Part shown: in pieces, positions 5,948-9,278 of the stretch | Layout: each line of letters starts with the position of its first letter | Numbering within the stretch: the first letter of the stretch is position 1 | Assembly: GCF_001677475.2 (NCBI RefSeq) | Contig: NZ_CP015229.1 | Length of the DNA stretch: 64,000 nt | From: Escherichia coli | GTDB lineage: Bacteria; Pseudomonadota; Gammaproteobacteria; Enterobacterales; Enterobacteriaceae | Strand: one strand, 5' to 3' | Program-made: the position numbers and the translations under genes | The notes under the pieces: generated by a model | Seen by the model: only the letters and a program-made list of their open reading frames with translations | Database searches by the model: none | Told to the model about the DNA's origin: nothing

Positions 5948-7882
5948 ATGAATATATTCGATCACTATCGCCAGCGATATGAAGCTGCCAAGGACGAAGA
6001 GTTCACACTGCAGGAGTTTCTTACCACTTGTCGGCAAGATCGCAGTGCTTATGCCAACGCGGCTGAGCGGCTATTGATGGCTATCGGTGAGCCTGTCATG
6101 GTCGATACAGCCCAGGAACCCAGACTTTCTCGACTCTTTTCTAACCGGGTCATAGCACGTTATCCGGCATTTGAAGAGTTTTACGGCATGGAAGACGCGA
6201 TTGAACAGATTGTCTCTTATCTGAAACACGCGGCTCAGGGGCTGGAAGAGAAGAAACAAATCCTGTATCTGCTGGGGCCTGTGGGTGGGGGTAAATCATC
6301 GCTTGCTGAGCGACTGAAATCATTGATGCAGCTCGTACCGATTTATGTATTGAGCGCCAACGGTGAGCGTAGCCCGGTCAACGATCATCCGTTCTGTCTT
6401 TTCAATCCGCAGGAAGATGCTCAGATTCTGGAAAAAGAGTATGGCATTCCTCGCCGTTATCTCGGCACCATCATGTCGCCGTGGGCGGCAAAACGCCTGC
6501 ATGAATTTGGTGGCGATATCACTAAGTTCCGGGTAGTGAAGGTCTGGCCGTCAATTCTGCAACAAATTGCTATCGCCAAAACGGAACCCGGCGATGAGAA
6601 CAACCAGGACATCTCCGCGCTGGTAGGGAAAGTCGATATTCGTAAACTCGAACACTACGCGCAGAATGACCCGGACGCCTACGGCTATTCCGGTGCGCTG
6701 TGCCGCGCCAACCAGGGGATCATGGAATTCGTTGAGATGTTTAAAGCACCGATTAAAGTGCTGCATCCCTTGCTAACCGCCACTCAGGAAGGTAACTACA
6801 ACGGGACGGAAGGTATCTCCGCCCTGCCGTTCAACGGGATTATTCTCGCCCACTCGAACGAATCCGAATGGGTCACTTTCCGTAATAACAAAAACAACGA
6901 AGCCTTCCTCGATCGTGTTTACATCGTGAAGGTGCCGTATTGCTTGCGCATTTCCGAAGAGATCAAAATCTACGAGAAATTGCTTAATCACAGTGAATTG
7001 ACTCACGCCCCCTGCGCCCCTGGCACGCTGGAAACGCTGTCACGTTTTTCCATTCTTTCGCGCCTTAAAGAGCCAGAAAACTCCAGCATTTATTCAAAGA
7101 TGCGGGTTTATGATGGCGAAAGTCTGAAAGACACAGATCCCAAAGCCAAGTCGTATCAGGAATATCGTGACTACGCCGGTGTCGATGAAGGGATGAACGG
7201 TCTGTCGACGCGTTTTGCGTTTAAGATCCTCTCCCGCGTGTTCAACTTCGATCATGTAGAAGTGGCGGCAAACCCGGTCCATCTGTTCTACGTCCTGGAA
7301 CAGCAGATCGAGCGCGAGCAGTTCCCGCAAGAGCAGGCAGAACGCTATCTGGAGTTCCTGAAAGGTTATCTGATCCCGAAATATGCCGAGTTTATCGGCA
7401 AAGAGATCCAGACGGCCTACCTTGAATCCTATTCCGAATATGGGCAAAACATTTTCGACCGTTATGTTACCTACGCGGATTTCTGGATTCAGGATCAGGA
7501 GTATCGCGATCCGGATACCGGGCAGTTGTTTGACCGCGAGTCTCTTAACGCCGAGCTGGAGAAAATCGAGAAACCGGCGGGGATCAGTAATCCAAAAGAT
7601 TTCCGCAACGAGATTGTTAACTTCGTACTGCGCGCCAGAGCGAATAACAGCGGACGCAATCCGAACTGGACCAGCTATGAAAAACTGCGCACGGTTATTG
7701 AGAAGAAAATGTTCTCCAATACCGAGGAGCTGTTGCCGGTTATTTCGTTTAACGCCAAAACGTCAACCGACGAGCAGAAGAAACATGACGACTTTGTCGA
7801 CCGTATGATGGAAAAAGGCTACACCCGTAAACAGGTGCGTTTACTGTGCGAATGGTATTTGCGCGTACGTAAATCGTCTTAA
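5948..7882 (+). CDS. yeaG: PrkA-family serine protein kinase YeaG
   Basis: ORF 5948..7882, 644 aa; Walker A-like GPVGGGKSS; PrkA family. Confidence 0.9.
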   Translation: MNIFDHYRQRYEAAKDEEFTLQEFLTTCRQDRSAYANAAERLLMAIGEPVMVDTAQEPRLSRLFSNRVIARYPAFEEFYGMEDAIEQIVSYLKHAAQGLEEKKQILYLLGPVGGGKSSLAERLKSLMQLVPIYVLSANGERSPVNDHPFCLFNPQEDAQILEKEYGIPRRYLGTIMSPWAAKRLHEFGGDITKFRVVKVWPSILQQIAIAKTEPGDENNQDISALVGKVDIRKLEHYAQNDPDAYGYSGALCRANQGIMEFVEMFKAPIKVLHPLLTATQEGNYNGTEGISALPFNGIILAHSNESEWVTFRNNKNNEAFLDRVYIVKVPYCLRISEEIKIYEKLLNHSELTHAPCAPGTLETLSRFSILSRLKEPENSSIYSKMRVYDGESLKDTDPKAKSYQEYRDYAGVDEGMNGLSTRFAFKILSRVFNFDHVEVAANPVHLFYVLEQQIEREQFPQEQAERYLEFLKGYLIPKYAEFIGKEIQTAYLESYSEYGQNIFDRYVTYADFWIQDQEYRDPDTGQLFDRESLNAELEKIEKPAGISNPKDFRNEIVNFVLRARANNSGRNPNWTSYEKLRTVIEKKMFSNTEELLPVISFNAKTSTDEQKKHDDFVDRMMEKGYTRKQVRLLCEWYLRVRKSS

Positions 7883-7994
7883 CAACCCTGGCCCGGTACA
7901 CATGCTACCGGGCCTACAACGACAGCGAACCGTGGGCCAGAGAAGCGGCAACACAGGCGTAGCATACAGTTGGCAAATGTAGTACGGGGGGCAT

Positions 7995-9278
7995 ATGACC
8001 TGGTTTATTGACCGGCGTCTGAACGGCAAAAACAAAAGCATGGTGAATCGCCAGCGTTTTTTACGCCGTTATAAAGCGCAAATTAAACAGTCGATCTCCG
8101 AGGCCATTAATAAGCGTTCGGTGACTGACGTCGACAGCGGCGAGTCCGTATCCATTCCCACGGAAGATATTAGCGAACCGATGTTTCATCAGGGGCGTGG
8201 CGGTCTGCGCCACCGCGTGCATCCGGGCAATGACCATTTCGTCCAGAACGACCGAATTGAACGTCCCCAGGGTGGCGGCGGAGGTTCCGGCAGTGGTCAG
8301 GGCCAGGCCAGCCAGGATGGTGAAGGTCAGGATGAATTTGTCTTTCAGATTTCGAAAGATGAGTATCTTGATCTGCTCTTTGAAGATCTGGCCTTACCGA
8401 ATCTGAAACAAAACCAACAACGCCAGCTGACCGAATATAAAACGCATCGTGCGGGTTATACCGCTAACGGCGTTCCGGCCAATATCAGCGTTGTGCGTTC
8501 ATTGCAGAACTCACTGGCACGACGCACAGCCATGACGGCGGGCAAGCGGCGGGAACTTCATGCGCTGGAAGAGAATTTGGCCATCATCAGCAACAGTGAA
8601 CCTGCGCAACTGCTGGAAGAGGAACGTCTGCGCAAAGAAATTGCAGAATTACGTGCCAAAATTGAACGCGTCCCTTTCATTGACACCTTCGATTTACGTT
8701 ACAAGAACTACGAGAAGCGGCCCGATCCCTCCAGCCAGGCAGTGATGTTTTGCCTGATGGACGTTTCGGGTTCAATGGATCAGTCCACTAAAGATATGGC
8801 TAAGCGTTTTTATATTCTGCTGTATCTGTTCCTTAGCAGAACGTATAAGAACGTGGAAGTCGTTTACATCCGCCACCATACTCAGGCGAAAGAAGTCGAT
8901 GAACATGAGTTTTTCTACTCGCAGGAAACTGGCGGCACCATTGTTTCCAGCGCCCTGAAACTGATGGATGAGGTAGTGAAAGAGCGTTATAACCCGGCAC
9001 AGTGGAATATTTACGCGGCACAAGCATCGGACGGCGATAACTGGGCCGATGACTCTCCGCTTTGCCATGAAATCCTGGCGAAAAAATTATTACCCGTCGT
9101 TCGTTATTACAGCTATATCGAAATTACCCGTCGCGCTCATCAGACACTGTGGCGAGAATATGAGCATCTGCAATCTACTTTCGACAACTTTGCGATGCAG
9201 CATATCCGCGACCAGGATGATATTTATCCGGTGTTCCGTGAACTGTTTCATAAACAAAATGCAACAGCTAAAGACTAA
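7995..9278 (+). CDS. yeaH: DUF444 protein YeaH, partner of YeaG
   Basis: ORF 7995..9278, 427 aa; Gly/Ser-rich low-complexity stretch ([12 protein letters not shown]); likely co-transcribed with yeaG. Confidence 0.85.

Follow-up and report, generated by a model that had tools for sequence, protein, structure and literature searches.

Conserved AAA+ ATPase and predicted vWA/MIDAS partner encoded by the yeaG–yeaH starvation operon of Escherichia coli

Described relatives and identity of the locus

Few bacterial stress modules without an agreed biochemical activity are as widespread as those of the yeaGH type, which bear on how cells survive starvation and resume growth, on sporulation in Bacilli, and on the outcomes of adaptive evolution. 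The closest described system is Bacillus PrkA-YhbH with SpoVR, which has its Pfam families (AAA_PrkA plus PrkA, DUF444, and SpoVR) in common with E. coli, and whose PrkA shares with YeaG the debate over biochemical activity. The Bacillus genes are sporulation genes, whereas E. coli does not sporulate and the role there is adaptation to nitrogen starvation and stationary phase; YeaH reaches 238 bits with the spore_yhbH model (TIGR02877), under the equivalog cut-off of 468, and the Bacillus trio differs from that of Enterobacteriaceae, where ycgB is unlinked.

Other AAA+ systems are more distant. Toward the MoxR-class AAA+/vWA pairs (NorQ-NorD, RavA-ViaA, and CbbQ-CbbO), the matches of YeaG stop at a sub-threshold P-loop hit to AAA_5 (18.2 bits against a cut-off of 22; E value, 0.0027; amino acids [aa] 107-133 only) and a match to RavA across the P-loop (E value, 0.15); YeaG further differs by an extra 260-aa helical domain, and the third partner, SpoVR, is specific to the YeaG-YeaH module. 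By profile, YeaG matches many AAA+ clades (Lon, RavA, Rad24, and others) at the P-loop level only, and these matches do not mark it out as MoxR-like. Midasin/Rea1 and the Mg-chelatase BchI-BchD likewise combine an AAA+ motor, an acidic linker, and a MIDAS domain, but the linker of YeaH is short (~23 aa), a helical hairpin separates it from the vWA domain, and motor (YeaG) and MIDAS (YeaH) are on separate polypeptides. Lon protease has a weak likeness to YeaG around Walker A, although no protease domain was detected in YeaG, and what links YeaG to Hanks-type Ser/Thr kinases is only its annotation and the phosphotransfer reported in vitro, with no detected similarity in sequence, motif, or fold.

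The locus analyzed here, within a 64-kb stretch of DNA (the window), is the yeaG–yeaH (yeaGH) starvation operon of E. coli, a well-known part of the core genome of which this copy has no novelty: of 5426 complete E. coli genomes, 5424 carry the 4-kb region, annotated there as yeaG/yeaH (best identity, 99.5%). All features are on the + strand unless stated. yeaG (5948..7882) encodes a 644-aa PrkA-family protein, and yeaH (7995..9278), after a gap of 112 bp, encodes a 427-aa DUF444 protein. A preliminary description of the window had given both open reading frames (ORFs) at exactly these positions, and its assignment to PrkA and DUF444 agrees with full-length Pfam matches and with scores above the NCBIfam equivalog cut-offs (below). 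It was also right to call the system poorly understood, as literature up to July 2026 still labels YeaH and YcgB uncharacterized. A 75-aa ORF at 5724-5951 (+), running across the promoters and over the start of yeaG, and minus-strand ORFs inside yeaG and yeaH are unannotated in RefSeq and were treated as spurious because of overlap with conserved noncoding elements.

Domains of YeaG and YeaH and their genomic partner

[quoted passage not shown] The Walker A P-loop, GPVGGGKS, is at aa 110-117 (nt 6275-6298). In a set of 56 homologous sequences from two distant clades with a mutual identity of 26-29%, G110, P111, V112, G113, K116, S117, R232, and E260 were invariant (56/56), as were F261, E263, H302, N304, E305, D322, and R323. 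The sequence thus gives direct support to a conserved AAA+ ATPase module in YeaG. Variants K116A and R232A fail to complement a yeaG deletion (PMC4664914), and structures of a Thermus homologue have been solved (9xip, 9xiq, and 9xir). The preliminary description of YeaG as a kinase with a P-loop is not supported in that form: the P-loop belongs to the AAA+ domain, as its Walker A motif, and not to a kinase domain.

YeaH matches DUF444 (PF04285) at aa 4-421 (418-position profile; 636 bits; E value, 4.2e-191) and the NCBIfam equivalog NF003708 (843 bits against a cut-off of 466). A disordered Gly/Ser-acidic linker occupies aa 92-114 (nt 8268-8336), close to the ~8265-8340 where a Gly/Ser low-complexity tract had been noted. 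In the AF2 model (pLDDT, 86), aa 166-225 form a long helical hairpin, and the C-terminal domain (aa ~236-425, nt 8700-9269) adopts a vWA alpha/beta fold, as had been suspected when structure prediction was proposed. Its predicted MIDAS residues are D256, S258, and S260 (nt 8760-8774), T315, and D346, of which the first four were invariant in 122/122 sequences and D346 was kept in 121/122. The model gives them a canonical layout, past strands 248-256 and 337-345 and in the loop leading into helix 317-331. Sequence and model directly support a vWA domain with a complete predicted MIDAS metal-ion site behind the Gly/acidic linker, and from these we infer that YeaH is a metal-site (vWA/MIDAS) adaptor paired with an AAA+ ATPase. 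A search of the accessible literature found no paper connecting PrkA/YeaG with vWA. Pfam may place DUF444 in a vWA-like clan, so the fold assignment itself is probably already in databases.

Co-occurrence with a third partner, suggested earlier as a check, was examined across genomes. prkA was directly upstream of yeaH in 79/79 gammaproteobacterial loci with upstream DNA, and a SpoVR/YcgB gene was the regular neighbor outside Enterobacterales, where it lies directly downstream of the DUF444 gene in nearly all loci (it adjoins that gene in Vibrio, Aeromonas, Alteromonadales, and Pseudomonas). SpoVR is unlinked in Enterobacteriaceae and 2-10 kb off in eight other Enterobacterales loci (Erwinia, Pantoea, Pectobacterium, Brenneria, Serratia, and Acerihabitans). 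No SpoVR/YcgB homologue was found anywhere in the 64-kb window; E. coli has ycgB at another chromosomal site (Price et al.). A jumbo phage also carries prkA, the DUF444 gene, and the SpoVR gene side by side. Mutants of yeaG, yeaH, and yeaGH share one phenotype (PMC4664914), and yeaG, yeaH, and ycgB mutants are tightly cofit (r>0.7 in six bacteria; Price et al.). Phenotypes of the yeaH deletion are a shortened lag following 24 h of nitrogen starvation and an advantage in growth on L-arginine.

Possible activities of the module

Published work describes the yeaGH products as slowing metabolism and delaying regrowth (a "metabolic brake"), and reports on the biochemistry of YeaG/PrkA conflict, ranging from kinase to protease to no activity. 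On balance, we lean slightly toward yeaGH being a stress-induced AAA+ ATPase/vWA adaptor module that acts as such a brake. YeaG would be an ATP-driven motor, probably a ring oligomer, and YeaH its adaptor, whose MIDAS site would hold an acidic residue belonging to YcgB or to a client. Given a motor and a MIDAS adaptor, the module would work on target proteins in the manner of other AAA+/vWA pairs, by remodeling or sequestering them, and not as a Hanks-type kinase cascade. A MIDAS-type vWA adaptor beside an AAA+ motor would replace a vague "signaling pathway" with specific, testable hypotheses. With somewhat less conviction, we tentatively suggest that YeaG-YeaH and the unlinked YcgB/SpoVR form a distinct AAA+/vWA(MIDAS) class of remodeling machine that imposes metabolic quiescence and is not a kinase pathway. 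Such a machine may move as a unit, including in jumbo and Thermus phages, for which it may be a means of reprogramming host metabolism. Were this reading true, the name "serine kinase" would be a 30-year-old misannotation.

The prevailing annotation (RefSeq product name, "protein kinase YeaG") has YeaG as a true Ser/Thr kinase with a highly diverged Hanks-type domain at its C terminus and YeaH/YcgB as regulators or substrates, an account that we consider unlikely. It draws on malate-dependent phosphorylation of AceA by YeaG in vitro and an altered phosphoproteome in a yeaG deletion (PMC8055822), on the autophosphorylation and casein phosphorylation that Price et al. cite, and on the failure of K426A, in the C-terminal domain, to complement (PMC4664914). 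K426A shows that the C-terminal domain matters, but the residue, claimed as catalytic, is Lys in 26/56 homologues and Asp in 30/56. At E values of ≤10, aa 372-644 gave no Pkinase match in Pfam, and a family profile retrieved no kinase domain among 177,635 PDB sequences; GxGxxG, HRDxKxxN, DFG, and APE motifs are all absent from aa 372-644. The C-terminal model is all-helical with moderate confidence (pLDDT, 72; pTM, 0.51), lacks the beta-rich N-lobe of the bilobal fold, and gave no kinase-fold match in structure searches. (The solved Thermus homologue, 9xip, was absent from the matches of either search; the Foldseek library ends 2026-04-08, and 9xip may be later.) The kinase label given to YeaG in the preliminary description thus finds no counterpart in profile, motif, fold, or conserved catalytic Lys. 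No kinase activity was found for PrkA of B. subtilis (PMC9512850) or B. anthracis (PMC13001217), so that the kinase activity of YeaG is contested between PMC8055822 and these studies of Bacillus homologues, and the label "serine kinase" rests on weak grounds. Phosphoproteome changes in yeaG mutants should not be equated with direct kinase-substrate relations, and the reported AceA phosphotransfer may be a minor activity or one that depends on the P-loop.

We regard as very unlikely a Lon-like, ATP-dependent proteolytic role for YeaG, in which it would break down specific regulators in starvation, with YeaH as substrate adaptor. B. subtilis PrkA was reported to hydrolyze alpha-casein in an ATP-dependent manner, an activity that sporulation required (PMC9512850), and Lon AAA+ modules were the sole non-PrkA PDB sequence matches of YeaG, but that similarity covers ~54 residues around Walker A (aa 74-127) at E values of at least 0.0066, Pfam scans of YeaG found no Lon_C or other peptidase domain, and B. 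anthracis PrkA showed no proteolysis after rigorous purification, the earlier activity being ascribed to a contaminant (PMC13001217). That same study, which detected no kinase and no protease activity in B. anthracis PrkA, proposed for it what for YeaG-YeaH seems to us the least credible account, in which there is no catalysis beyond nucleotide binding and the pair is a stoichiometric scaffold, a sequestering factor, or a competitive inhibitor of other AAA+ machines. The B. anthracis protein was monomeric by SEC-MALS and oligomeric with ATP (PMC13001217). Against a purely stoichiometric role, all residues expected for ATP hydrolysis (Walker A Lys, Walker B-like acids, sensor-like Asn, and a conserved Arg) are invariant, B. 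subtilis PrkA hydrolyzes ATP (PMC9512850), and the Walker A mutant has no function in vivo (PMC4664914).

Promoters, untranslated leader, and hairpins

Transcription of yeaGH rises under nitrogen starvation (NtrC) and general stress, from promoters reported as RpoS and RpoN dependent (PMC10954441), with NtrC-dependent yeaG transcription also reported (PMC4664914). The upstream spacer (5513-5947) is 435 bp long, as previously stated, and the stress-responsive promoter anticipated in it has conserved counterparts that fit this literature, namely, a sigma54-type promoter (5829..5844) and a sigmaS-like -10 element (5772..5782). The former, TGGCAT-N5-TTGCT (TGGCATGAGAGTTGCT), has -24/-12 elements with 1 mismatch to TGGCAC-N5-TTGCW, stands at the same position in 17 of 25 aligned Enterobacterales upstream regions, and predicts a start at ~5855, or -93 from the yeaG ATG, the same as the 5' end of the untranslated region (UTR) construct used in PMC10954441. 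The motif is no more frequent than chance across the window (5 sites; 3.7 expected), and its support therefore comes from position and conservation. The sigmaS-like extended -10 element, TCTACGCTTAA, was read from the sequence (C at -13, TACGCT hexamer, and TAA downstream) and lies at a block, CCATCTACGCTT, that is nearly invariant in the Enterobacterales alignment; we take it to belong to sigmaS on the basis of the consensus.

Farther upstream, a block at 5710..5737 (GATGAGTTGTTGATATGCCATTGAAATT), ~120-145 nt 5' of the inferred sigma54 start, keeps its position across most Enterobacterales upstream regions and is a candidate site for an activator or bending protein. A scan with the NtrC consensus TGCACC-N5-GGTGCA (≤3 mismatches) found no site in the spacer and a chance-level count across the window; the NtrC site known from ChIP in the literature was given no position in the spacer by this consensus scan. 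A sigma70 scan gave 5 sites (5.1 expected), none usefully placed.

The inferred yeaG 5' UTR (5855..5947) contains a pairing site for the small RNA SdsR, UGUGCUAAAA (5919-5928), and a Shine-Dalgarno sequence, AAAGGA (5933-5938); the UTR blocks CTGTGCTAAAA and ACGAAAGGACGG are conserved across the Enterobacterales alignment. Duplex prediction, using the SdsR sequence from the closest genome, placed pairing at -29..-20 and -8..-4, in agreement with the published sRNA target (site at -31..-22; PMC10954441). No SdsR gene is in the 64-kb window; in the closest genome, it is ~0.8 kb past the 3' end of the window. The UTR folds no better than shuffled sequences (z, +0.46), and an Rfam scan found no family inside or near the operon.

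Just after the yeaG stop is a GC-rich stem-loop without a U-tract, GGCCCGGTA-cacatgc-TACCGGGCC (7890..7914). A stem-loop recurs there in many Enterobacterales with differing sequences, and in E. albertii the stem is kept despite changed bases. Over the whole yeaG-yeaH gap, predicted folding is no stronger than in shuffled sequences (z, -0.32), and the hairpin is therefore given as a candidate mRNA-stabilizing, processing, or leaky-termination element inside the operon. An intrinsic-terminator-like hairpin (9283..9311), with an 11-bp stem followed by TTTTT, begins 5 nt 3' of the yeaH stop and closes the operon.

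Operon identity, distribution and third partner

Both open reading frames lie exactly where the preliminary description placed them, yeaG at 5948-7882 (+, 644 amino acids [aa]) and yeaH at 7995-9278 (+, 427 aa), and their PrkA and DUF444 homology was borne out by Pfam and NCBIfam. YeaG matched AAA_PrkA over aa 19-380 (1.3e-187) and the PrkA C-terminal domain over aa 382-636 (8.7e-71), the DUF444 match spanned all of YeaH (4.2e-191), and both proteins passed NCBIfam equivalog cut-offs. The length given for the spacer upstream of yeaG (435 bp, 5513-5947) was likewise correct. Region 5400-9400 was found (megablast) in 5,424 of 5,426 complete Escherichia coli genomes, annotated as mipA / yeaG / yeaH, with a top identity of 99.5% to other E. 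coli genomes; identity to E. albertii was 89.7%, and the window is therefore E. coli. Gene order is standard, with yeaE and mipA upstream and cdgI and dgcJ downstream. The operon is already known and universally conserved in E. coli, and this copy is without unusual traits; the locus is of value as a pointer to a module under active study. The neighboring yeaE (3822-4676, −) is intact here (284 aa), but the annotation of the most similar genome, GMF054, lists it as a frameshifted pseudogene.

The prkA gene stood directly upstream of yeaH in all 79 gammaproteobacterial loci. Co-occurrence with ycgB, proposed earlier as a check, was found: a Pfam-confirmed gene of its family, SpoVR, follows yeaH directly (0 to 50 nt) in almost all Vibrio, Aeromonas, Alteromonadales, and Pseudomonas loci. 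Among Enterobacterales other than Enterobacteriaceae, eight loci (Erwinia, Pantoea, Pectobacterium, Brenneria, Serratia, and Acerihabitans) have it 2 to 10 kb downstream; none was present within 10 kb of yeaH in Enterobacteriaceae or anywhere in the window. In Thiocystis minor (locus L080, 6155-8863), the SpoVR protein encoded downstream of yeaH owes its length of 902 aa to an intein that contains a LAGLIDADG homing-endonuclease domain.

Altogether, 17 phage records encode a PrkA homologue. Ralstonia jumbo phage RsoM2USA has the PrkA-DUF444-SpoVR genes side by side (gp30, gp29, and gp28), Thermus phage phiYS40 has the trio clustered, and a phage-like metagenomic contig has it amid replication genes; PrkA and DUF444 are neighbors in a 642-kb megaphage (phage-borne loci L083, 3892-8735; L085, 5944-10760; L087, 1549-7674; L086, 6001-9309). 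PrkA and DUF444 differ greatly in evolutionary rate; in L083, PrkA (3892-5811) is 70% identical to YeaG and DUF444 (6001-7257) only 39% identical to YeaH. The Enterobacter phage LAU1 record (H11, MN688132.1, 30.8 kb) opens with a gene (1-1932) whose identity to YeaG is 97.7%; it appears to be terminal host sequence in a record derived from a prophage, not a phage gene.

Domain anatomy and a proposed mode of action of YeaG and YeaH

Published biochemistry of YeaG/PrkA is contradictory: one study describes YeaG as a kinase phosphorylating AceA (PMC8055822), while others describe Bacillus subtilis PrkA as a Lon-like protease and no kinase (PMC9512850), and B. anthracis PrkA as having neither activity after contaminant removal (PMC13001217). 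The genetics is consistent, with a common phenotype for yeaG, yeaH, and double mutants (PMC4664914) and cofitness of yeaG, yeaH, and ycgB mutants in six species (Price et al.). On these data together with the domain anatomy, we favor, as somewhat probable, a mechanism in which YeaG would be a stress-induced AAA+ motor and YeaH its MIDAS-type vWA adaptor. The likeness to MoxR/vWA pairs is proposed for the working mode, not for the AAA+ class of YeaG.

AAA+ residues of YeaG are invariant between the gammaproteobacterial proteins and a Thermus/Chloroflexi/Planctomycete clade at 26 to 29% identity. For YeaH, 122 representatives (38 to 60% identity) from a family of 3,387 hits were aligned, and the AF2 model built on this alignment reached a pLDDT of 86. 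Five MIDAS residues (D256, S258, S260, T315, and D346) were invariant or nearly so, and with the model they therefore gave a positive answer to the vWA-fold check suggested previously. The Gly/Ser low-complexity tract, correctly recognized from the sequence (aa 92-114, nt 8268-8336), is disordered (aa 94-106, pLDDT <50). Family-wide, a Gly-rich stretch and, after it, an acidic GEGEDxF motif keep a constant position; Enterobacterales show only small length changes, plus one 10-aa duplication (Shigella flexneri 1485-80) and one compensated frameshift across the tract (one E. coli record). Gly number differs by 1 or 2 among genera, and the tract DNA appears slippage-prone.

YeaG had been described as a kinase with a P-loop; the P-loop stood (GPVGGGKS, aa 110-117), and the kinase assignment was not supported by the domain tests. 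A true but diverged kinase would fit the AceA report, but we consider it unlikely: checked against the defining traits of Hanks kinases, the C-terminal domain gave no Pkinase match at E ≤ 10, no kinase among its PDB sequence matches, and no signature motif. At position 426, mutated in earlier work as the supposed catalytic Lys, 30 of 56 homologues have Asp, and the C-terminal model is all-helical (pLDDT 72, moderate confidence only), with K426 within a helix. A Thermus homologue is in the PDB under the title "Serine protein kinase" (9xip/9xiq/9xir, 30 chains altogether); 9xip was absent from the matches of the C-terminal model in both structure searches. That YeaG is a protease, as reported for B. 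subtilis PrkA, is improbable, since no protease domain was found in YeaG, Lon similarity is restricted to the Walker A region, and the B. anthracis protein showed no such activity once contaminants were gone. A noncatalytic scaffold is given slightly less credence still.

Regulatory elements of the operon

The stress-responsive promoter expected in the spacer has candidates there. A sigma54-type element (TGGCAT-N5-TTGCT, 5829-5844) has one mismatch to the consensus and keeps its position in most Enterobacterales; motif frequency across the window was not above chance. Its predicted start (~5855, −93) coincides with the 5′ end of the untranslated region (UTR) reporter of McQuail et al. (PMC10954441). 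Upstream lies a nearly invariant sigmaS-like extended −10 element, TCTACGCTTAA (5772-5782), adjoined by another conserved segment (~5750-5770, GCAAGTTTT..TTTGCCA); a further block, GATGAGTTGTTGATATGCCATTGAAATT (5710-5737), is strongly conserved. RpoS- and RpoN-dependent promoters are described for yeaGH (PMC10954441), and NtrC activates the operon (PMC4664914); an NtrC consensus search located no site in the spacer.

The SdsR target CTGTGCTAAAA (5918-5928) is conserved, as is the Shine-Dalgarno sequence, and their predicted pairing with SdsR of the closest genome agrees with the published site. SdsR/RyeB is a small RNA repressor of yeaG translation; it and SraC/RyeA, its antisense partner, are encoded between yebY and pphA (locus L084, 1496-1640), ~56 kb from yeaG and ~0.8 kb beyond the 3′ end of the window, which stops within pphA. 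Directly 3′ of the yeaG stop, a GC-rich stem-loop without a U-tract (7890-7914) recurs across Enterobacterales with differing sequences (gaps of loci L002-L034), the stem being preserved in E. albertii despite altered bases. Some genera carry REP-like GTAGGCCGGATAAG elements in the yeaG-yeaH gap. A terminator-like hairpin (9283-9311) marks the operon end.

Other elements in the window

No tRNA genes were found in the 64-kb window, and megablast aligned no part of positions 1-740 with the closest genome, which is colinear elsewhere. Relative to that E. coli genome, a 2.4-kb insertion (44674-47081) between yobD and mntP is an IS21-family element encoding IstA-like (44766-46265, 499 aa) and IstB-like (46262-47017, 251 aa) proteins. 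A distance of 38 nt separates the end of the element from the mntP yybP-ykoY Mn2+ riboswitch (47119-47215, +) downstream, which puts the element in the mntP promoter region. The riboswitch scored 41.9 bits against an Rfam gathering score of 45 and is thus missed at the default threshold; the sole gathering-level Rfam matches in the 64 kb were the sroD small RNA (27259-27344, −, 115 bits) and a cspA-type thermoregulator 5′ UTR (48810-49270, −, 136 bits).
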